A DNA stretch of 59,208 bases, counting the filler, from Fonticula-like sp. SCN 57-25 (taxonomy: Eukaryota), in NCBI GenBank assembly GCA_001724245.1. It is 6 parts of 6 records of this genome, joined end to end, with 100 filler letters (N's around TTAATTAATTAA, not from the genome) between each part and the next. Parts side by side here need not be neighbours in the genome. Positions count along the whole stretch, not along the records: positions 9,272 to 18,440 come from MEDX01000268.1; 5 more parts are not named here. One strand, 5' to 3'. The notes beneath the pieces were generated by a model, which saw only the letters and a program-made list of their open reading frames with translations, was not told where the DNA came from and searched no databases. Below, piece after piece: positions 9,172-47,182 of this stretch. The translations under genes and the position numbers were made by a program. How positions within the stretch are numbered: the stretch's first letter is position 1; every line of letters starts with the position of its first letter.

Positions 9172-9271
9172 NNNNNNNNNNNNNNNNNNNNNNNNNNNNN
9201 NNNNNNNNNNNNNNNTTAATTAATTAANNNNNNNNNNNNNNNNNNNNNNNNNNNNNNNNNNNNNNNNNNNN
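9172..9271. other. Artificial contig linker (44N-TTAATTAATTAA-44N)
   Basis: Identical 100-nt spacer with stops in all six frames, repeated five times. Confidence 0.98.
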
Positions 9272-9596
9272 CGGGGCAGGCGTTGATTGGTCAAACTGGG
9301 ATCCATTGATTACAAAATCAGACCCAACTGTACCCCAGATCCTGGCCCAGACTTTTTGTAAACGGCCGTGAATCGCGTTATAGGAATGCGATCACACTTT
9401 CACGCGCGCCTGGGCCCCGCGCGCCAAATTGCAGGCTTTTTTTCCTGTTCTTTCTTGTCTTTGGCTCCCGCCTTCCCCCCGCCTCCCCGCGGATTTCCCA
9501 CGTGCATCCCGACAAGGCCCGGTTCGACAGCGTCGGATTGCGCCGAGTTCTGGGTTGACCGAGTTGACCTTTTTCGCCGCCGTTCGGGCGCACAAG

Positions 9597-9680
9597 ATGC
9601 TTGCTGCCTATTTCCACGCTAACGAGACAGTTGCGGAGGACTACCTTGCCGACCAGGTTTGGAAGGCGAGCGGGATCTGA
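9597..9680 (+). promoter_or_regulatory. Arginine attenuator peptide (AAP) upstream ORF, 27 aa
   Basis: MLAAYFHANETVAEDYLADQVWKASGI; core EDYLADQVWKA matches fungal AAP QDYLSDHLWRA / QDYISDHIWKT; stop 74 nt before the CPA1 ATG. Confidence 0.85.
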
Positions 9681-9754
9681 AGGAAAGCACAAGAAAGCAC
9701 CTTCCGACTCCTTTTTTTCATCCTTTTTCTCTTTAAATAATTCACCACTTCACC

Positions 9755-10930
9755 ATGCTTCGCGCGCTGTCGGTGGCCCGCGCGCCGCTGGTCCGCCGCG
9801 CGGCGCTCGCCACGAGCGTGCCCACGGTCCGCATCGACCTCCAGTCTGGCCACTCGTTCTCTGGCACCTCGTTTGGCGCGCCCAAGTCTGTCGCCGGCGA
9901 GCTCGTCTTTTCCACCGGCATGGTTGGCTACCCCGAGGCGATGAGCGACCCTTCGTACCGCGGTCAGATCCTTGTCTTTACGCAGCCGCTGATCGGCAAC
10001 TATGGCGTGCCCCCGTCGAGCACTGACAAGTACGGCCTTCAAGAGTTCCTCGAGTCGCCCGGCATCCAGGCGGCGGGCATCATTGTGTCCGACTATGCCG
10101 CTCAGTACTCGCACTGGAACGCGGCCGAGTCGCTCGCCTCGTGGTGCAAGCGCTTTGACGTGCCCGCCGTGACGGGCGTCGACACTCGCGCGCTCACCAA
10201 GCTGCTGCGCAGCCAGGGCTCGACGCTCGGCCGCCTCGTCGTGGGCGGCAGCGAGGTCCCCTTTGAGAACCCGAACGAGCGCAACCTCGTTGCCGACGTG
10301 TCCACCAAGGAGGTCAAGGTGTACAACCCGAACGGCGATGTCACGATTGCGCTGGTGGACTGCGGCGTCAAGCACAACATTATCCGGTGCCTCGCTGACC
10401 GCGGCGCCAAGGTGGTCGTTGTGCCGTGGGACTATGACGTGTCGCAGGTGGCGTACGACGGCCTGCTGCTGTCGAACGGCCCCGGCGACCCCGCTCGCTG
10501 CGGCCCGACGGTCGACATTATCCGCAAGGCGCTCGGCCGCCGCGAGCCCATCTTTGGCATCTGCATGGGCAACCTGCTGCTCGGCTTGGCCGCCGGGGGC
10601 AAGTCGTACAAGCTGCGCTTTGGCAACCGCGGGCACAACCAGCCTGCGCTCAACACTGTCACCAACACTGGCGTCATCACGTCGCAGAACCACGGCTACG
10701 CCATTGACGTGGCCACGCTCGGCGAAGGGTGGCTGCCGTACTTTGTCAACATCAACGACGGCTCGAATGAGGGTCTGCGCCACGCGAGCAAGCCGTTCAC
10801 GTCGGTGCAGTTCCACCCCGAGTACCGCGGCGGGCCCGAGGACACGGCCGTCCTCTTTGATAGCTTTATGAAGAGCGTTCGCGCGGGCAAGCTCGAGGCG
10901 GCTGATGACGTCATTGCTGCTACGGCGTGA
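9755..10930 (+). CDS. CPA1: Arginine-specific carbamoyl-phosphate synthetase small (glutaminase) subunit, mitochondrial presequence-like N-terminus
   Basis: GELVFSTGMVGYPEAMSDPSYRGQIL, SNGPGDP, GICMG (Cys), TSQNHGY, QFHPE (His/Glu); Arg/Ala-rich acid-free N-terminus; intronless. Confidence 0.96.
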   Translation: MLRALSVARAPLVRRAALATSVPTVRIDLQSGHSFSGTSFGAPKSVAGELVFSTGMVGYPEAMSDPSYRGQILVFTQPLIGNYGVPPSSTDKYGLQEFLESPGIQAAGIIVSDYAAQYSHWNAAESLASWCKRFDVPAVTGVDTRALTKLLRSQGSTLGRLVVGGSEVPFENPNERNLVADVSTKEVKVYNPNGDVTIALVDCGVKHNIIRCLADRGAKVVVVPWDYDVSQVAYDGLLLSNGPGDPARCGPTVDIIRKALGRREPIFGICMGNLLLGLAAGGKSYKLRFGNRGHNQPALNTVTNTGVITSQNHGYAIDVATLGEGWLPYFVNINDGSNEGLRHASKPFTSVQFHPEYRGGPEDTAVLFDSFMKSVRAGKLEAADDVIAATA

Positions 10931-11176
10931 TCGCGCGTAGTGAAACAGTTTTAGTTATTGTAGAACACAAACCGTCTTTGAGTAGCGGACGGCAATATAT
11001 GCATCAGTTATTCATATTATAGTTGTTTGATACATAGAAGAGGCGCAATGAAGATCAATTACAGTTTGTACAAGAGTCTGCTGTCATATTGAGCTAAAAT
11101 GTATATTGCAGTTTGCATGGGCAGAAAAGTATGCGGGTGACCAATGTACAGCGAAAGAAAAGGAAACATGCGATGC

Positions 11177-11852
11177 CTACAGGACGAAAGAGATGACGAC
11201 TTTATTGTGCTGGAGGAGCGTGTTGCCGTTGAAGAGGAATGTATCAGCAAAAATGCGGTCGTCTGGGTTGGCACGCACGCGCTCCTCTGTTACAGCAGAA
11301 TTAGCGACAGCGAACGATGCGGATCATGCGTACCGAGATCGTGGAATCCCGGCGGGATGTCGTACACGAGATCCCACGTGGTGACCGTATTGGGCGCGAG
11401 GCGTCCGTACGCAAACTGAAAGCTCTTGAGCTTTTCCTTGCCGTAAAAGTAGTTTTCGATCAGCCTGACCTCGGCAAAGGGCTGATCGCCGCTCTGCAGC
11501 TTGAGCGAGATGCCAAAGCACTCGAGCCGAAAGAATGATACGCCAAATTCATAATGGAAGAGCTGGTTGCGCGGGATGCTCGCGAGCGTCGTCTGCGTCA
11601 GGCTCGACGGTGAGTCCGGCTGGCTCTTGTCGGTCGGCGCGGGCGCCTCGAAAAACACTTCGCCCGTCGTGAGGTTGCGAAACTTGGCAGCCATGATGAC
11701 GACATGCGGGATCGGGGGGCCGCTTGGAACCACAAACTCTATAGACGCAAAGGGCAAGTTAAAGTGCACAATTTAGCTATGGCAAACACACAAAAGAGGT
11801 TTGTCGTACCATTTGTCGGCTCCAGCAGATCGATCGCCGCCTGCGGGTCCAT
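11177..11852 (-). CDS. UNC119: UNC119/PDE-delta family lipidated-protein carrier (divergent)
   Basis: VRLIENYFYGKEKLKSFQFAYGRLAPNTVTTWDLVYDIP and last exon FADTFLFNGNTLLQHNKV parallel UNC119 FRMIERHYF...LKSFDF.FG...SDSFYFVD...HNKA; two introns. Confidence 0.65.
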
Positions 11853-12237
11853 CGCGCGCCACACGTTAACCAGGGACTGATTCCACCCCAGACTGACCAC
11901 CCCTGCCTTTTGACCAAATCTGCCCCTGACGCAAAGGGGAGCGAAGGAGAACAGGATAATTATGGTATCCATACTGAGATAAAGGGCCATTCTATGGCAC
12001 AATGTGCAGGTCCAACGCAGATACACAGTCATTACTGGTACTGGTTACTATAAGGAACCAACCACAGTACTGACATGTCTATTGACAGGCAGCGCCACAA
12101 CATGTATGATATTGATCAAGTGTATATGAAACATGTTCAAATGGACTATCTTAACTTTCATGTACAGGCAATGTAAATGGGCAAAGTGAAAAACTGTATA
12201 TAATCAATGAATGTACACGATAAGCTCCAATCAATTC

Positions 12238-14219
12238 TCAGCGGCTCCACTGGCGCCCGTCCCCACCCGACGACGACGCGCCCTTCTCCTTCAAGTTCTC
12301 CTTCTTGTACGCAGCCTTTTCACCCGCCCTGCTGTTCTGGTAGCCGGCACCCATGCCACCGCCACCACCGCGGCGCTGCTGACGCTCCTCCTTGCCGTTG
12401 CTGTTGATATTGAGGTTGACGCGCGGCGGCACGGCAAACCCAAAGCCCTTGGCGACGAGCTGCAGGTCGAGCTGGTGCACATTGAAAATGTTCTTGAGCG
12501 AGTGCGACGCGTACGACTGCAGGTACGAGCGGTAGCCCTCGCGCGCCGAGCGGTTCAAGTAATAGTTCTTTTCGACGAGGCGCTCGAGCTGCGACTGCAC
12601 GTTTGACAGCTTGTTGAGCGGGAACTCGTACTCGTTGAGCGGCACCTTCGCCTGCTTGAGGTAGCGCAGAAAGCCGAGCTCGCTCTCGAGCAGGAAAAGA
12701 AGCGCGCGGCCGCTCTTGCCGGCGCGCGCCGTGCGGCCCACGCGATGAACGTACTCGCGCGGGTCATCCGGCGGGTCAAACTGGACAATCCAGTCGACGG
12801 CGGGGATGTCGAGGCCGCGCGCCGCCACGTCCGTGCACAGGAGAACGCCCTGCGTGGCATTGCAAAACTCGAAAAAGGTCGCCGTGCGCTTCTGCTGCTT
12901 GAGGCGGCCGTGAAGGTCGAGCACGGGAATGTCAATGTAGTTGAGCAGCTCGGCGTGGTACTTTACGGCATTGCACGACGACATAAAGACAATAATCTTT
13001 TTGTTCTTCATGTTCTTCTTGATAAAGGTGAAGAGCAGCAAAAAGCGCTTGTCGCTGGGGCACACAACATAGCCCTGCTCGAGGTTGTCGGCGGTCGCCA
13101 TGACGGCCTCATCAGCAACGTTCACGTAGAGGGGGGCCTTGCGGAGCGAAACGCGAGCGAGGTCCTCGACCTTGGTCGTCTGCGTCGCAGAGAACAAAAG
13201 GGTCTGGCGGTCCGTCGGGAGAATGCGCAGAATCTGATTCATTTCCTCTTCGAAACCAATTTCCAAAATACGGTCGGCTTCGTCGATAATCAGCGTCCGA
13301 ACGTTTTTAAAGACAAAGCCGTTCGTGTTCTGAAGATGATCGAGAAGGCGGCCGGGCGTCGCCACGAGAAGGCTCACGCCCTTGGCAAGCTTTTCAGCTT
13401 CCGCTTTCCTGCACCAAGGCGCGTCAGTAACAAGAAAAAGAGCGAAATAAGGCAGGGAAAAGAAAGTCATGGCATGTGTCAGAGGTAAAAAAAAAGTTGT
13501 TTCACGCGGTTTTATCCGCACTCGAAAGTAGCAAATATTACTCAACATCATTCAGAGCCAAAACTTGATAGACAATAACACAAAACAAAAACGCACCGGT
13601 TGGCGCCGCCCATGACGATGCCGAATGTCTGGTGGTGGTAGCGCATGAGCTCAGTGGCGACCTCGTAAATCTGGATGGCGAGCTCGCGCGTGGGCGAGAT
13701 GACGACGATGCCCGTGCCGTTGCGCGGCTTCCACTGAAGGCGCGCAAGCAGCTCGACGGCGGGGATGAGGAAAGCAAGCGTCTTTCCGCTACCGGTCTTG
13801 GCCTGGCCGAGAATGTCGCGGCCGGTGAGGGCCGGCGGCACAGAACGGCGCTGGATCTCAGTCATGGAGGTGAAGCCCATGTCGTTGATGGCGCGGTGCG
13901 TCTCCTCAGACAGCTCGAGCGAGGAAAACAGACCGTCCTGCGTCGAGTCGGCCGCGAGCTCGAGCTCCATGGAGCCAAACGACGACTTGTCGGCGGCGTC
14001 GCCCTTGATGACCGCGGCGGCCTTGTCCTCGTCACCGGCGGCTCCCGGCAGCGGCTCCATCTTCTTGGCCTTCTTCTTCATGGGCGTCTTCTCGGCGGGC
14101 GCCTCAACAGACTCAACAGTCATGTCCTCGGCGTCCTCCTCCATAGCCTCCTGCGCCTTGGCGCGCTTCTTGCTCGACATCGCGCGCTCCTCGGTCGGGC
14201 GCTTGGGGGTCGGTGCCAT
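12238..14219 (-). CDS. HAS1: DEAD-box RNA helicase HAS1/DDX18
   Basis: [60 protein letters not shown]; one intron ~13410-13596. Confidence 0.96.
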
Positions 14220-14373
14220 GCGGGCGAAAGGGAAATCTGTGATTGATAAATCCACCAGCCCTCTTTGATAGGGTCGACACGTGGCGCCCCTAATATCGTG
14301 ACTGTGTCCCTTTTTTCCCGTTGTTTTCCACTTTCCCTCGGCCGACTTTCCAGCGACCGACAGATCACGAACC

Positions 14374-14891
14374 ATGGCCACCGAGCGTACCTACATCATG
14401 GTCAAGGTGCGCGCTCTAGCTTAATTAGCCCTTTTGTGCATTGCTGACAACTTTTTTCTTTTTCCTTGCAGCCTGACGGCGTCCAGCGCGGCCTTGTTGG
14501 CGAGATCATCAAGCGCTTTGAGCAGAAGGGCTACCGCCTTGAGGCTCTCAAGCTCATGCAGCCCACCAAGGAGATGCTCGAGCAGCACTACGCTGACCTC
14601 TCGTCCAAGCCGTTCTTCCCCAAGCTCATCGCCTACATGCTCTCGGGCCCCGTCGTCGGCATGGTCTGGGTCGGCCGCAACGTTGTCAAGTCGGGCCGCA
14701 TGATGCTCGGCGCCACCAACCCCGCTGACTCTGCCCCCGGCACCATCCGCGGTGACTTCTGCATCGAGGTCGGCATGAACATCTGCCACGGCAGCGACAG
14801 CGCCGAGAACGCCGAGAAGGAGATCGCCCTCTGGTTCGCCGACGGTGTCGTCGCCTGGAAGAAGTCGGCCGATGCCTGGATCTACGAATAG
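14374..14891 (+). CDS. NDK1: Nucleoside diphosphate kinase
   Basis: [40 protein letters not shown]; intron 14407-14471. Confidence 0.97.
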
Positions 14892-15206
14892 ACGCCTAGG
14901 CGCCCCGTATCGCAATACACTCTTATGCCCTATGTTTTGCTGTTTTCAATTTTAGTTTGGGCCCACGATGCGCTTGATCATCGCGCAAGCGAGATGCCGC
15001 AGAGATGCCGCAGAGATGCAGAGAGTGACAGAGCGACACCAAGTTCATATGGCATAAACGTTTAATTTCGATGCGGTTCAATAGGCTAAAGGCATCTTTA
15101 CTACACAATTCCGTCACTGCCCACTTGCCACAACACACCACATTGACTAGAGGTATATTCATGCCAAATTATGCCTATCTATTACGTAATGTACACACAA
15201 ACAGAT

Positions 15207-16530
15207 CTACGCCGACTCTTTTGTTCGCCGCCGCTTTGACTTTGCGTCTGCCGCCGCGGCCACCGACGGCGAGCGGTCGTCCCCACTAGGCCCGTCTGGT
15301 GTTGAAGCCGGGCTCGCCGTCGCCGCCACTTCTCCTGGCGTAGTGATGCCAAGGCTGCCGGCGGCGGCTGTGCCAGCAGCAGTTTGCGCGCCAGCCAGGC
15401 CACGTGCACGCTGAGCGTCCTTGTGCTCCTGAAACTTTGCGGCGATAAAGTGGAGGCTGGAGAGCGGTCCGGCGCCGCTGCCGATACTGACAGACATGAG
15501 TTCGCTGAGATTGTTGACGACTTCGGCGATCTAGACAGGAATGTTAGCAGCAGTGAAGGGCGAAAAATACGAGGTAAAGCGCTGATAATGATAAAAACAT
15601 GCAAAACGGACCAATATAGCACATAATGACGTAAAATTGGGGCAAACAATAGAGCTCGATAACGGCTGAAAATGTCAATGTGCCAAACACACATAAACAA
15701 CAACAAAAAATACCTCGAAAGAAATCGCCTAAAATAAAAACAAACGCACCTCGAGGCAGCGCATCATATTTATAGTAATTCCAAATTCGTTTACTGGCGA
15801 CGGCGGGAGTGTAAAAGGCGTCCCTGGATCTGCCTTGCGCATGCGCGCCTCGATGGCAGCACGCGAGAGGAGCTCGGTGTGCTGCTTTGTGTGAAACTCC
15901 CAGAGGTGTATCCGGCCCGACGCGGAGAGGGACACGCGGAGGTGGCCTTTGCAGTGCACCTCGATGTCCGAGTCGAAGCGGTAGATGATGGCCGCGCGCG
16001 GACAGTCAACAAACATCATCCCAGTCGAGTAGTACTCCTTGGCAAACTCCATGGCAAAAAGGACATCGACGACGCCAGAGTCAAATATGACCTTGTAAAA
16101 GCGCGCGAGAAGTGTGGCGCTGAGCTCAAATGTGCGGTTTTCGCCATAGTGTGAATTCCAGAGCGCCAGCTTCATCACGATGCTGTCCTGCGCAAAGCTC
16201 GCCGGGCCGTAAAACGACGAGACGAAATCCTGCCAAAATTCGATCGAGTTGTCCTCGCGGCGCGAAATCCGTTCCCAGTATCTAAAAAGCGTACTAATTC
16301 CCACGGGGCGCCTGTTGTTTCAACAAAGTAAGCAACACGAAAGACAAACGTAATCCCCCCCTCAATCCCGGCACATACATATTATCAGGGGCTGAGGTAA
16401 GCGGCCTCGCCGGCGGACCAGCCGCCGTCACAGCCACTCCGGCCGGCGACGCCGCAGCGGCCTGCGAGTGGTCGGACTGGCCGTCTTGTCCCGACGGCGC
16501 TGCCAGCGCAGGTGTCGGCCCGGCGGACAT
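15207..16530 (-). CDS. LIM-domain-binding (LIM_bind) family coregulator, SEUSS/Mfg1/LDB-like
   Basis: DNSIEFWQDFVSSFY, VDCPRAAIIY, IHLWEFHTKQHTELLSR, PVNEFGITINMMRCLE|IAEVVNNLSELM...GPLSSL; basic NLS-like C-terminus. Confidence 0.85.
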
Positions 16531-16656
16531 TGCAGCCACAGGTACCGTTCAAAGAGGTGCCACTCGCCCGACAACCAGGATTGCTCAACCACGTGGCCAG
16601 GAAGTGCTTGTTCACGACCACAGTTGCTCATCCACGTGGCCAGTCTGCGAGCAGGC

Positions 16657-17649
16657 ATGTCGTCGTCGGTTGGGCTGCTGTCGCTAATTTTCGGCAATGT
16701 GCTGTGCTCGATCGGCGTGATCTTTGCCAACAAGTACCTGTTTGCGACGCTTAACTTTCACTACAGCGCGACGTTGACGGGGCTTCACTTTTTGTGCACG
16801 ACCATCTTTTCGCATGCGCTTGTCGCCGGTGGCGTCGAGCGCGCCGGCGAGCTCGATCGCCGCCGCGTGCTTGTCCTCGCCTTTCTGACGTCGTACGCTG
16901 TGTGGTCACAGAACGTGAGTCTTCTCGTGAACACGGTCAGCATCTACCAGATCGCCAAGCTCTTTGTGATCCCGACGACGGTGGCGCTGCAGTTTGCCAT
17001 GTACCGCCAAGGCATCTCGGTTAAGCTTCAGATCGCGCTCTTTGTGGTGACCGCCGGCGTCGGTCTCACAACGGTCAGCGCAGTGGAAGGCTCTGGCTTT
17101 GGCCTGCTTGTCGCCTTGAACGGCGCGGTGAGCACGGCGCTTCAGCAGCTACTTTACAACGTCATGATGAACGACCGCCGGCTGTCCGGCATCCAGCTCT
17201 ACTACCACATCGGCCCGCTCTGCACATCGCTCATGCTCGTCGGTGGCTTTTTCATGGACAGCCGCATCGCGGGCGACGGCGTCTGGATCACGCAGGCGAC
17301 GATTCCTGCCTACACATGGGTACGCTCTCATTTTTTTTGCTGCGCGGCCCAGTTAACACCTCGTTAGATGTGGGTGGCGCTATCGTGCTGCATGGCCTTC
17401 CCCATGAACTACTCGTCGGCGATGCTGCTCGCCAAGACCAGCGCCGTCACTTTCCAGGTGCTTGGCCACGTCAAGACGGTGCTGGTGTTTGCGCTCGGCG
17501 TGCTCTTCTTCGACAGCAGCATGAACGCGCAGCAGTTTGCCGGCATCGCCGTTGCAATGCTCGGCGTCGTTGCGTACACGCACTTGAAGTCACGCGATGC
17601 GGCGGTACCGACGCCGCTTCCTGTTGTCGCCCCAAAGACGCCGCAGTAG
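16657..17649 (+). CDS. Nucleotide-sugar transporter (SLC35E3/UXT-like, TPT family)
   Basis: SIGVIFANK, TLTGLHF, NVSLLVNTVSIYQIAK, SAVTFQVLGHVKT; ~10 TM; one intron ~17320-17367. Confidence 0.88.
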
Positions 17650-18440
17650 GCGCAGGCGGGTGGCGCTTAGCATGCTATCTGTACTATATTACCATCGACG
17701 TTTATTTATCGACGTATATTCATTGTCGTTTATTATCGTTTATTAGGAATAAAGTCACTATCAATCTATTTTAAAGACTAAATAGGCGGAAGCGCACTGC
17801 AAGCACTCTGCGTGTACTTTACATATTGGCCTGTTGCCACATGCAACTTTTCAAATGCCAGGAATTGTGGCTATTTGACTGCGCCCTTACCGTGCTACGC
17901 AATTACTCTTCCTACCAGTATGGCCGCTCCATCTGTGCCTAGTAGTTTGCTCAACATGATGCCCTAATCAGTACAATGGTGTTGGCTGGAATGTCGCCGC
18001 AGCGGCGGGCACTATTCTGCAAGTTTGAGTTGCACTCTAAAATGCGTACCACCCCGACGAATCTGGGTGGTGATCGATTTTGCCACCATGCTGCTGGCGG
18101 GGTTGTACCAATGTTTCCTGGATCGTAAATGCCAAGGAGCCGATTTGGCAAGTCTAGCAATGTGGAAAGACCCATTGCCGTCGCGTACTAAAAACGGTAG
18201 ACCAGGTGAAATCATAAAGGCAGATCATAAGCAAGGAGCCGCCGGAGAAGACGCGTTCATCATGGACACGCTGCCTTCCAGCAGCAACCCCACCAGCCAG
18301 GCTAGTGGACCTACAGCTAACCAGGCGGTTTAGTTCAAGCGAGTGTTTGTATGCCAGTAAAATATACAATAGGCATTCTTGCATTGATCATGCGTATCCC
18401 TGTGATGAACAATGCCCACACTGTAAAAATAGCAGTTGTC

Positions 18441-18540
18441 NNNNNNNNNNNNNNNNNNNNNNNNNNNNNNNNNNNNNNNNNNNNTTAATTAATTAANNNN
18501 NNNNNNNNNNNNNNNNNNNNNNNNNNNNNNNNNNNNNNNN
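18441..18540. other. Artificial contig linker
   Basis: 44N-TTAATTAATTAA-44N. Confidence 0.98.
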
Positions 18541-20553: not shown

Positions 20554-23127
20554 ATGGGGACTGTGGCAGAGTCTTCGCTTTTGATGGAGATCCGCAACTC
20601 GCCAACCCTTGCGGCGCTCAAGGAGTCGCAATCAGGGCAGAGCGATCGTACGACACCCATCCTTGGCGCCCCACTTCGCATTGCCCTTACTGAGCGCGGT
20701 TTTAGATGGCCTGATCAGCAACGTGCAGCTTGTATCGAGCAGGCGCCTTCTCCAGCTGCTGCGTCAAGTCAACTCGGACCTCGTGCGCATCGTGCAATGT
20801 TGTGTGTTTGAATCTTACCGATGGCGTTCTAGGAAGTCGATCCGGAGGCGTCGACGCTTTTGTGCGCCATGGCCGAAGGGGCCATCAAGCGGATGCTCAA
20901 TGAGTGCGCCAAGGATGTGACGTTTCCTTCGACGTCGTCCGTTGACGGCGCCTACTTTCAAGTCCTGACGCCCAAGAGCAAGCTGGTCAAGCTCGCGCTG
21001 AGCTACGCGCGCAACAAGACGAACGCCTACCTGGCGAATCCCTCGACGAGCGATGTCATCCTCCCGATTGCGGGTGTGTTGGAGCTTGTTCAGGCGGCCA
21101 CGCTCTCTGATGGTGTTGTCTCGACGGACGTGCCGTCGATCACCGAGTGCGCGGCGTACCTCACCGCCGCCCTCGAGTACCTTTACATTGAGCTTCTCAA
21201 GGGCTGCCAGTCGCAGATTTGGAACAACCAGTTTAACCGCGCGGGCGCCGTGTCGACGTGCATCACGCCCGACGTCATCGACGGTGCGATCAACGCAAAG
21301 TTTGAGTGGCCGCGCCTTTTTAGCGAGCAGCCGTCCGAGGCCATGGACACCAACATGATGCTCCGCATTCTCGTGATCCCCGCGCGCGGCGACGCGATGC
21401 ACGTGGTCAAGATTGATACTGCGCAGACCGTGGCCGCCGTCTGCGACGAGCTCAAGCTTCAGGTGCGCGTGTCCGACGACCTCAAGTACTGCCTCTTCCT
21501 CCCGAGCGACGACACGGAAGAGTTCCACGGCATCTTCCTCGACCCCGCGCGCCGCCTCAACTCGTACCCCGGCGTGCGCCCCGACGCGCTGCTCGAGTAC
21601 CGCCCCGAGACGCGCTCGCAAATCATCTACACATCCGAGACCAAGTGCAAGGACTTTACGTTTGCCGAAAACATGACGGTCGAGCAGATCATCAAGATGG
21701 TGATCAACAAGGCGGGCATGCGCGACCACACGCGCTTTGGCCTGCTGCTTGTGAACGGCGACGACACGAGCTCGGTCAGCAGCGGCAACGGCGGGTCGGG
21801 CGTCGGCGGCGGTTTTGGCGGGAACGGCTCGACGCTGCGGTCGGGCAGCTCGTCTACGGTGAACGGCTTTGGCGGGAACGGCTCGACGCTGCGCTCGAGC
21901 AGCTCGGCAACGGTCAACGGCTCGTCATTGTCGCTCGGGCGCACGGCGAGCGATGACGGCTTTTCGACGGTGAACCGCAAGATGAACAAGGCGCGCCCCG
22001 TGTCGCACGCATTCGTCGTTGGCGGCGAGGGCGTCAACCGCGGCGGCAAGCCTGGCTCGCTGGTACAGACGGTGGACGTGCCGGCCATCTACCGGACGCA
22101 GCGCGGCAAGGGCGCGCTGATGGGCACGCTGACGCCCGGCACGCTGACTGACGCGCTCGTCGTCGAGACGACCGACCGCATGGACTGGCTCAACCCCTTC
22201 CAGTCGCTGCGCTCGCAGTCGGTCCAGGACGCCGACATTCTCCTGCTCGTGCGCCAAAAGAAGCACGAGTCCTTTTACGACCAGGTCAATGAGAACCCCG
22301 TGCGCGCGTGCGAAAAGCTGCAGGAGAACGCCGAGCAGCTCATCAAGTCGATGCTCGCCGCCATCGCCGACATGACGGCGTACAATGCGCTGCAAAAGGA
22401 GATTGCGCCGAGCCTCAGGCGCGAGCTCTCGCGGCCCTTTATCCGCCACATCACAAACGAGACGTGGGTGGCCGCGCAGTCCTTTATCCCGACGGGCAAG
22501 GAGCTGGACGACCACCTGGCGTACCGCGCGGATGACAAGGTGCTCGTGCTGCACAAGCAGGCGACGCGGTGGTACGGCACCATGGCCAACGCCGAGGGCT
22601 GGTTCAACCCCGCCAACGGCCGCGTCCCCAACGCGAGCGGCCTCCGCGGCCCGTCCAAGCCCGTCTTTATCGGCGTGCCAAAGGAGGCGCCCGCGCAGCT
22701 CCAGAGCAGCAGCAGCACAAGCCTCAACAAGAACGCGTCGGGCACCACGCTCGGCCGCAGCAACACGCTGCCGAGCAACAACCCCGTCGGACGGCCCTAC
22801 GAGGGCTTCCTCATGAAGAAAGGGCAGCGGTTCAACAAGTGGAAGCGGCAGTACTACCGCATCTACAGCAGGTCGCTCTGCGCGTACGCGTCGGAAAAGG
22901 ACAGGCCGCACGCGCCCGTCGCGGCGATCCCCATCACGGACGCAGAGGTCGGGCCCGTCACATCGGGGCCGCACCGCTCGCCAAACGCGTTCTTTGTGCG
23001 CACGGGCGGCAAGGAGCGCATCTTTATGACAGAGTCGGCAGAGCTCGTGCAGGCGTGGTGCCTCGCAATCAGGTCGGGCAAGTTGGGCGCCATCGGCATC
23101 CTCAACGCAAAGACCGTCAAGAACTAA
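20554..23127 (+). CDS. Multidomain protein: tandem H2B/H2A-like histone folds, talin-like F0-F1 ubiquitin-like domains, SH3, PH (~821 aa)
   Basis: Exons 20554-20647, 20706-20782, 20833-23127 in frame; LLQLLRQVNSDL (H2B-like), AAYLTAALEYLYIELLK and CITPDVIDGAI (H2A-like); YCLFLPSDD..GIFLDPARRLNSY..LLEYR and WLNPFQSLRSQSVQDADILLL (talin F0/F1-like); HLAYRADDKVLVL..RWYG..EGWF (SH3); EGFLMKKG..KWKRQYY..VQAWCLAI (PH). Confidence 0.8.
21811..21921 (+). repeat. Tandem duplication of 54 nt (GFGGNGSTLRSxSSxTVN x2) in the F1 insertion loop
   Basis: tttggcgggaacggctcgacgctgcg occurs twice 54 nt apart. Confidence 0.85.
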
Positions 23128-27679: not shown

Positions 27680-27779
27680 NNNNNNNNNNNNNNNNNNNNN
27701 NNNNNNNNNNNNNNNNNNNNNNNTTAATTAATTAANNNNNNNNNNNNNNNNNNNNNNNNNNNNNNNNNNNNNNNNNNNN
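27680..27779. other. Artificial contig linker
   Basis: 44N-TTAATTAATTAA-44N. Confidence 0.98.
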
Positions 27780-37857: not shown

Positions 37858-37957
37858 NNNNNNNNNNNNNNNNNNNNNNNNNNNNNNNNNNNNNNNNNNN
37901 NTTAATTAATTAANNNNNNNNNNNNNNNNNNNNNNNNNNNNNNNNNNNNNNNNNNNN
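37858..37957. other. Artificial contig linker
   Basis: 44N-TTAATTAATTAA-44N. Confidence 0.98.
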
Positions 37958-47082: not shown

Positions 47083-47182
47083 NNNNNNNNNNNNNNNNNN
47101 NNNNNNNNNNNNNNNNNNNNNNNNNNTTAATTAATTAANNNNNNNNNNNNNNNNNNNNNNNNNNNNNNNNNNNNNNNNNNNN
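47083..47182. other. Artificial contig linker
   Basis: 44N-TTAATTAATTAA-44N. Confidence 0.98.

Follow-up and report, generated by a model that had tools for sequence, protein, structure and literature searches.

A predicted divergent arginine attenuator peptide, homologous to that of fungi, upstream of CPA1 in a Fonticula-like genome

Does the short upstream open reading frame (uORF) that precedes a CPA1 gene in the genome of Fonticula-like sp. SCN 57-25 encode an arginine attenuator peptide (AAP), and would such a peptide still respond to arginine in an organism that may not be a fungus? The AAP is among the best-studied eukaryotic nascent peptides that sense a small molecule within the ribosome. 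Its occurrence across several fungal phyla, together with introns in its uORF, was reportedly described by Hood in 2007, and a mutational study of the peptide is said to have been presented by Spevak in 2010. In excerpts of five publications (PMC7038982, PMC7969011, PMC11550727, PMC4505036, PMC7049704), the AAP is described as fungal, and no literature linking it with chytrids, zygomycetes, Fonticula, Holomycota or nucleariids was found among the top-ranked matches. According to an excerpt of PMC7038982, the peptide of Neurospora crassa stalls ribosomes in an arginine-dependent manner, this stalling is abolished by the exchange of Asp-12 to Asn (D12N), and Asp-12 contacts uL4 in the exit tunnel. 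The essential Asp is residue 12 in N. crassa and residue 13 in yeast (excerpts of PMC7038982 and PMC7969011). As summarized in a section of the review PMC11550727, leaky scanning gives ribosomes access to CPA1 if arginine is low, AAP stalling also triggers nonsense-mediated decay (NMD), and it is irrelevant for the AAP where in a longer peptide the conserved residues are placed. Similar behavior is reported for a basidiomycete homologue in an excerpt of PMC7049704.

The locus lies in what we call the window, the whole stretch of 59,208 nucleotides (filler included) that was analyzed. It contains five pairs of 44-N runs around the 12-mer TTAATTAATTAA, spaced about 9-10 kb apart. These linkers identify the window as six or more separate contigs strung together, and since adjacency across the linkers is artificial, arguments from operons or neighboring genes are valid only inside one piece. 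The linkers are found at 9172-9271, 18441-18540, 27680-27779, 37858-37957 and 47083-47182, and each is a six-frame stop spacer. CPA1 resides on the contig that spans 9272-18440. Consequently, just 325 nt of genuine sequence precede the uORF, while anything before 9172 is no neighbor. The features on which the argument depends are the following.

9172-9271, no strand: artificial linker N44-TTAATTAATTAA-N44, recognized from the pattern of N runs
9386-9622, plus strand: 78-codon ATG frame that overlaps the start of the uORF (ORF list)
9436-9491, plus strand: pyrimidine-rich tract 5' of the uORF, judged from its sequence a possible core-promoter or transcription-start region
9597-9680, plus strand: uORF, predicted diverged AAP (ORF list, Pfam, PDB, comparison with metagenome locus L001)
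9639-9677, plus strand: putative AAP core DYLADQVWKASGI, 13 residues, reaching the last sense codon (2xl1_A alignment, scan with the L034 core, motif)
9678-9680, plus strand: TGA that closes the uORF, where ribosomes are predicted to stall with this codon in the A site (sequence; fungal AAPs)
9681-9754, plus strand: intercistronic spacer of 74 nt, free of ATG (sequence)
9755-10930, plus strand: CPA1/arg-2-type arginine-specific carbamoyl-phosphate synthase small subunit, 391 aa, intronless (Pfam, homologues)

The gene downstream of the uORF comprises both domains CPSase_sm_chain (Pfam, E 3.4e-44) and GATase, the class-I glutamine amidotransferase domain (E 1e-48). Its product begins with an Arg-rich presequence, and its start is aligned with the starts of its closest relatives. 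Among the best 120 matches, the highest-ranking named ones are early-diverging fungi (Basidiobolus, Coemansia, Mucorales and chytrids), which share 56-62% identity with the window protein, and unnamed metagenome proteins share 59-67%, while no CPA1 of Fonticula was present among these 120. One sequencing run of uncertain kind delivered a single contig of 184 nt, which falls within the CPA1 coding sequence (10133-10316) and leaves the leader uncovered.

Within the leader, the ORF listing places the 27-codon frame MLAAYFHANETVAEDYLADQVWKASGI on the plus strand, beginning with the ATG at 9597. The initial annotation had described such a uORF, ending 74 nt before the CPA1 ATG, and both the ORF list and the sequence agree with it. 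Between 9272 and 9754 only two ATGs exist, at 9386 and 9597. Both the ATG of the uORF and the main ATG of CPA1 carry an A at position -3, thus the uORF shows no obvious weak context that would favor leaky scanning. With a transcript that begins upstream of 9386, the overlapping 78-codon frame could pre-empt the uORF; only in this case is that frame relevant, and no counterpart of it was seen in L001. The pyrimidine-rich tract at 9436-9491 aligns in part with a CT-rich tract located 5' of the L001 uORF. An Rfam search of 9272-9800 returned a snoRNA model alone, with 20.2 bits against a cut-off of 47 bits, which we attribute to chance.

The peptide itself points to the AAP family. If all six frames of the 59-kb window are considered, the pattern DY[LIVM].D..W[KR] occurs a single time, at the uORF, while about 0.0009 occurrences per window and 3e-6 per 400-nt leader are expected. 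Employing the canonical 13-residue AAP core DYISDHLWKASVN of the fungal-type metagenome locus L034 (positions 1017-1055) as query, the highest BLOSUM62 score among 116,968 six-frame positions was 41 at 9639-9677, compared to 24 for the next best position, and both 13-mers end directly at their stop codons. In the PDB (177,635 distinct sequences), the sole match of the uORF at E<=10 was 2xl1_A, entered as 'arginine attenuator peptide' (E 1). Residues 12-25 of the uORF correspond to residues 9-22 of this 24-aa peptide without any gap; thus the distance to the C terminus is identical in both. Asp15, Tyr16, Asp19 and Trp22 align with Asp-12, Tyr-13, Asp-16 and Trp-19, and Gln20 comes to lie over His-17 of the N. 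crassa peptide, just as the initial annotation had it when it noted a Gln in place of the His.

Leader_CPA1 (PF08252) was the only family matched among 24,736 Pfam models. The match covers profile positions 12-22 of 23 and reaches 12.1 bits (E 0.13), which is below the gathering cut-off of 18.5 bits for this family. As positive control, the L034 core, matched to the same stretch of the profile, obtained 28.6 bits (E 8.9e-07). Since E is the product of p and the number of targets, the PDB and the Pfam match each correspond to a p of about 5e-6, a value that holds for a single prior hypothesis set by position, whereas the database-wide values of E 0.13 and E 1 are not significant. At the level of residues, the core agrees with that of L034 at 7 of 11 positions (Asp, Tyr, Asp, Trp, Lys, Ala and Ser), and the changes comprise Gln for His, Ala for Ser and the conservative exchanges L/I and V/L. 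The uORF thus departs from the canonical core D-Y-[LI]-S-D-H-[LI]-W-[KR]-[A], for which four canonical sequences served as reference (2xl1_A and the metagenome loci L016, L034 and L054); all four carry His at the position of the uORF Gln. Past the Trp there are five residues in the window peptide, as in 2xl1_A (W19 of 24) and in the peptides of L016, L034 and L054, and six in L001. A degenerate DNA pattern for VAEDYLADQ, applied to a collection of genome contigs, gave one match, in a bacterial cytochrome-c-like frame, and this we consider as chance.

To place the uORF among related leaders, metagenome contigs were searched with an alignment of the window CPA1 and its ten closest relatives as query, which yielded at least 80 loci; our counts of eukaryotic loci apply to the matches listed, and the other close relatives, P0002-P0004 and P0006-P0011, were left out. 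In a tree of the matched parts, four of the 80 loci listed (L001, L016, L034 and L054) form part of the eukaryotic CPA1 clade, which has a FastTree support of 99, and the remaining 76 group with bacterial carA. The initial annotation had suggested to inspect related CPA1 leaders, and this inspection revealed an AAP-type uORF in all four eukaryotic metagenome loci among the matches listed, or in five out of five if the window is included. Upstream of carA the AAP motif was found in none of the 76 bacterial loci. Elsewhere, partial matches to the motif were limited to L026 and L058, in a long frame downstream of carA.

Locus L001 is of particular value for this comparison. Its CPA1 is 64.6% identical to that of the window (252/390), and its uORF reads ATG...MPLLVAYVHVSETVAEDYLADQ up to a predicted intron of 119 nt, beyond which IWKSAASH and a stop codon complete it. 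This predicted intron comprises GTACGG, CTAAC, a pyrimidine tract and CAG, and it is inserted in phase 0 after the Gln codon. If spliced, the L001 uORF has 30 codons and shares 19 of 27 aligned residues (70%) with the window peptide, the Gln included. Both the reading frame and the Trp-Lys of the core are regained only across the predicted intron, which is hard to explain other than by selection on the peptide. Leader DNA around the uORF aligns poorly between the window and L001. Furthermore, shared synonymous codons amount to 12/17 in the uORF vs. 165/244 in the coding sequence (P 0.51); as there is no excess, the constraint looks peptide-level, not RNA-level. Neither exon 1 of the L001 uORF alone nor its read-through matched a Pfam family. 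The L001 leader also contains an 18-codon uORF (ATG 2369) and, nested within it, a 4-codon uORF (ATG 2411, MGAC), which together span 2369-2425 and share a stop codon 1 nt before the ATG of the AAP uORF; both are absent from the window. A second likely intron of L001 (2811-2869, GTAAGT...CAG, ~59 nt) is located downstream of the AAP uORF and ahead of the CPA1 ATG, and its counterpart is absent from the window as well.

L016, L034 and L054 encode canonical AAPs that end with DH[IL]WKASVN and stop. Counted by hand, their uORFs are separated from CPA1 by 55 nt (L016), 76 nt (L034) and 56 nt (L054). Each of these uORFs is split by one or two introns, whose insertion sites are ahead of or inside the codon for the first Asp and inside that for the second. 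The uORFs in question, divided by short introns, extend over 2380-2701 in L016, 900-1058 in L034 and 2380-2705 in L054, and the intron positions are unlike that of the L001 intron. As AAP coding regions are thus often joined by splicing, motif scans of unspliced DNA miss such uORFs.

Taken together, the window uORF displays several of the features by which an AAP is recognized. It occupies the leader position in front of CPA1, presumably within the transcript; Asp15 aligns with the Asp that fungal AAPs need for the arginine response; the distance from the core to the stop codon is short and fixed; and the peptide is under selection across species, as judged from one relative, L001. The proposal of an AAP-type leader of a CPA1 orthologue is thus borne out in position, length and spacings as well as in the Asp, Tyr, Asp and Trp of the core. 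Judging from sequence, the uORF is very likely a diverged homologue of the fungal AAP. By analogy to its fungal counterparts, it probably retains arginine-responsive ribosome stalling. As our main reading we propose a diverged AAP homologue that controls translation of the downstream CPA1 orthologue, and we assign to it a probability of roughly 0.65. We infer that the uORF forms part of the mRNA and is translated, and that arginine sensitivity persists with the His exchanged for Gln.

According to this proposal, a scanning ribosome would translate the uORF or else bypass it by leaky scanning and reach the CPA1 ATG. At high arginine, the nascent core DYLADQVWKASGI would contact the exit tunnel and peptidyl-transferase activity would be blocked, so that the ribosome would stall with the TGA at 9678-9680 in its A site and scanning ribosomes behind it would be blocked as well. 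CPA1 synthesis would then drop, and the mRNA would possibly be exposed to nonsense-mediated decay. The stall position is predicted at this codon because fungal AAPs stall there (excerpts of PMC7969011 and PMC4505036).

The most serious alternative, although it appears unlikely to us, is that the uORF descends from an AAP and has lost the ability to sense arginine, so that it damps CPA1 constitutively or via some other signal. Such a loss would fit to the sub-threshold Pfam score (12.1 bits, compared to 28.6 for a canonical core) and to the Gln at the position at which 4/4 canonical AAPs carry His; the drift of the core, with 4 of 11 positions different from the L034 core, has to be counted against a retained response as well. 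However, two organisms share the Gln variant while their CPA1 proteins are different at 35% of positions, and to find the same Gln in lineages so far apart speaks for maintenance of a variant and against decay. In addition, the peptide is with 70% identity at least as conserved as the enzyme, which is unexpected for a decaying element. Finally, the Asp that is equivalent to the residue exchanged in D12N is kept, and so are the Tyr, the second Asp and the Trp in the alignment.

A second alternative concerns splicing and goes back to the initial annotation, which had proposed an intron within the leader and attenuation that is switchable by its removal. It involves two further features on the CPA1 contig.

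9582-9630, plus strand: candidate 49-nt intron GTTCGG...GCTAAC...CAG, present as sequence, unsupported as intron
12238-14375, minus strand: HAS1/DDX18-type DEAD-box helicase, interrupted by a single intron, same contig as CPA1

If 9582-9630 were removed in some transcripts, the ATG of the uORF would be lost and attenuation would be relieved. GTTCGG (9582), GCTAAC (9618-9623) and CAG (9628-9630) do occur exactly where they had been placed and in the correct order, and the interval of 49 nt indeed includes the uORF ATG. Furthermore, CTAAC is rare in the window (24 sites in 58.8 kb, both strands), with about 0.1 expected per 484-nt leader. Yet 13 of these 24 sites have a loose donor and an AG nearby, so the arrangement is mildly unusual, not trivial. 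However, the donor, the CTAAC and the CAG are all missing at the matching positions of L001, and the 11 codons that would be removed are conserved there as peptide (M.L..AY.H..ETV). The signals are poor as well: the donor has a T at +3, whereas the definable donors of the lineage are GTGCGT (HAS1) and GTACGG (L001), the branch A is just 6 nt away from the AG, and a pyrimidine tract is absent. With 49 nt and a GC content of 0.55 the candidate also differs from the verified HAS1 intron (13596-13409, minus strand; GTGCGT...CTGAC...CAG), which comprises 188 nt with a GC content of 0.40. Moreover, given a transcript start upstream of 9386, the splice would fuse the ATG at 9386 in frame to the AAP core, and the resulting frame of 81 codons would end in the same 16 residues; thus the splice would not switch the peptide off. 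That this fusion is in frame is a 1-in-3 coincidence. We consequently regard the 49-nt intron as unsupported and a splicing switch as highly improbable.

Even less probable is a chance uORF, or a transcript start downstream of it, because, although the 184-nt contig falls outside the leader and E 0.13 and E 1 are both short of database-wide significance, the uORF is by a wide margin the unique best match in the window, its stop-codon register equals that of the solved AAP 2xl1_A, its peptide is conserved across the predicted L001 intron, and an AAP is found at exactly this place in 4/4 other eukaryotic CPA1 loci listed.

Returning to the diverged AAP, its relation to known systems can be described in some detail. 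Like the fungal AAPs of N. crassa arg-2 (2xl1) and Saccharomyces cerevisiae CPA1, it is encoded by a uORF in the leader of an arginine-specific carbamoyl-phosphate synthase small subunit gene. Its 27 codons compare to 24 in N. crassa, the core is ungapped relative to that peptide with five residues beyond the Trp in both, and the Asp-12 equivalent, the Tyr, the second Asp, the Trp, the basic residue and the Ala of fungal AAPs are kept. In contrast to fungal AAPs, the window peptide has Gln for His, Ala for Ser and Glu for Gln before Asp-Tyr, it scores under the Pfam cut-off (12.1 vs. 18.5 bits), and its host is found outside all named fungi in the CPA1 tree. L016, L034 and L054 share with the window the gene order, spacers of similar dimension (55-76 nt vs. 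74 nt) and a core that ends five residues past the Trp, straight into the stop codon. However, these three loci possess canonical cores (DYIS.DH[IL]WKASVN) and intron-split uORFs, while the window uORF is intronless.

Outside of fungi, an AAP-like peptide is specified by the ApiAT1 uORF in Toxoplasma gondii. In an excerpt of PMC8370653, this uORF is reported to confer arginine-dependent repression that requires a conserved Asp (D19N), and its authors consider the likeness to the AAP as probable convergence. The Toxoplasma uORF precedes an arginine transporter gene, whereas the window uORF is positionally orthologous to the fungal AAP. The hCMV gp48 uORF2 and the AdoMetDC uORFs are comparable in that a short uORF peptide in the exit tunnel holds the ribosome, so that the main ORF is repressed; in contrast, their sequences and their ligands (none, or polyamines) are unrelated (excerpt of PMC7038982).

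How far the finding extends the distribution of the AAP depends on the host. In a CPA1 tree rooted with bacterial carA, the window branches within an unnamed 10-row clade (SH-aLRT 94) that adjoins a 19-row clade of all named fungi (85). For HAS1, encoded on the same contig, Fonticula alba is the best named match with 79% identity and 681 bits, followed by the next named match with 74% and 663 bits. In the HAS1 tree, the window and Fonticula cluster together (94) inside a clade of 5 rows (96), whose sister group comprises 22 fungal rows. An AU test in which the window was constrained with the fungi gave no rejection for HAS1 (p 0.203). A Pumilio domain of the PUF4 type on another contig provides no resolution, as its best named matches are all fungi with 54-69% identity. 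The top-scoring HAS1 record, P0122, carries the label of a sturgeon contaminant and clusters in the tree with an insect sequence, and the top-scoring Pumilio record, P0242, is labelled as an unnamed Rhizoctonia product. Each of the two scores well above the next match, and both might be mislabelled or contaminant records.

Further genes were encountered in the window. On the CPA1 contig, a GMP-PDE-delta (PDE6D/UNC119-like) domain protein (11290-11694) and a LIM-domain-binding protein (15729-16319) are encoded on the minus strand. The region 20869-23127 (plus strand) encodes a protein of 752 aa for which Pfam detects talin-type FERM F0, RA-like and PH domains, and its structural neighbors, which are talin- or kindlin-like, are weak. 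Such an architecture of adhesion or signalling type may be a candidate marker of a non-fungal, amoeboid lifestyle. The host is a deep-branching holomycotan and may be either a protist of the Fonticula lineage or an unsampled early fungus; that it is non-fungal we consider close to an even call.

Thus, from the sequence comparisons, we regard the window uORF as a real and conserved, yet diverged AAP. The mechanism is not new, and the finding is an extension of the known AAP, interesting to specialists rather than surprising. Nevertheless, textbook cases probably understate both the age and the variability of the AAP control device. Standard family models miss diverged members of the AAP family such as the window uORF, and the natural variant with Gln for His offers a means to probe which residues are required for arginine sensing. 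Tentatively, and with more doubt than confidence, one might go further and propose that the association of AAP and CPA1 predates crown Fungi and that it is functional, with its Gln-for-His core, in a non-fungal holomycotan lineage that is related to Fonticula and has been encountered in environmental assemblies only. If true, this lineage would provide a natural variant for mapping those tunnel contacts that are really needed in arginine sensing. A diverged AAP in two environmental lineages outside the named fungi would place the origin of the device at a deeper point within Holomycota, and an arginine sensor in the form of a nascent peptide would, if this proposal is true, be an ancestral holomycotan trait.
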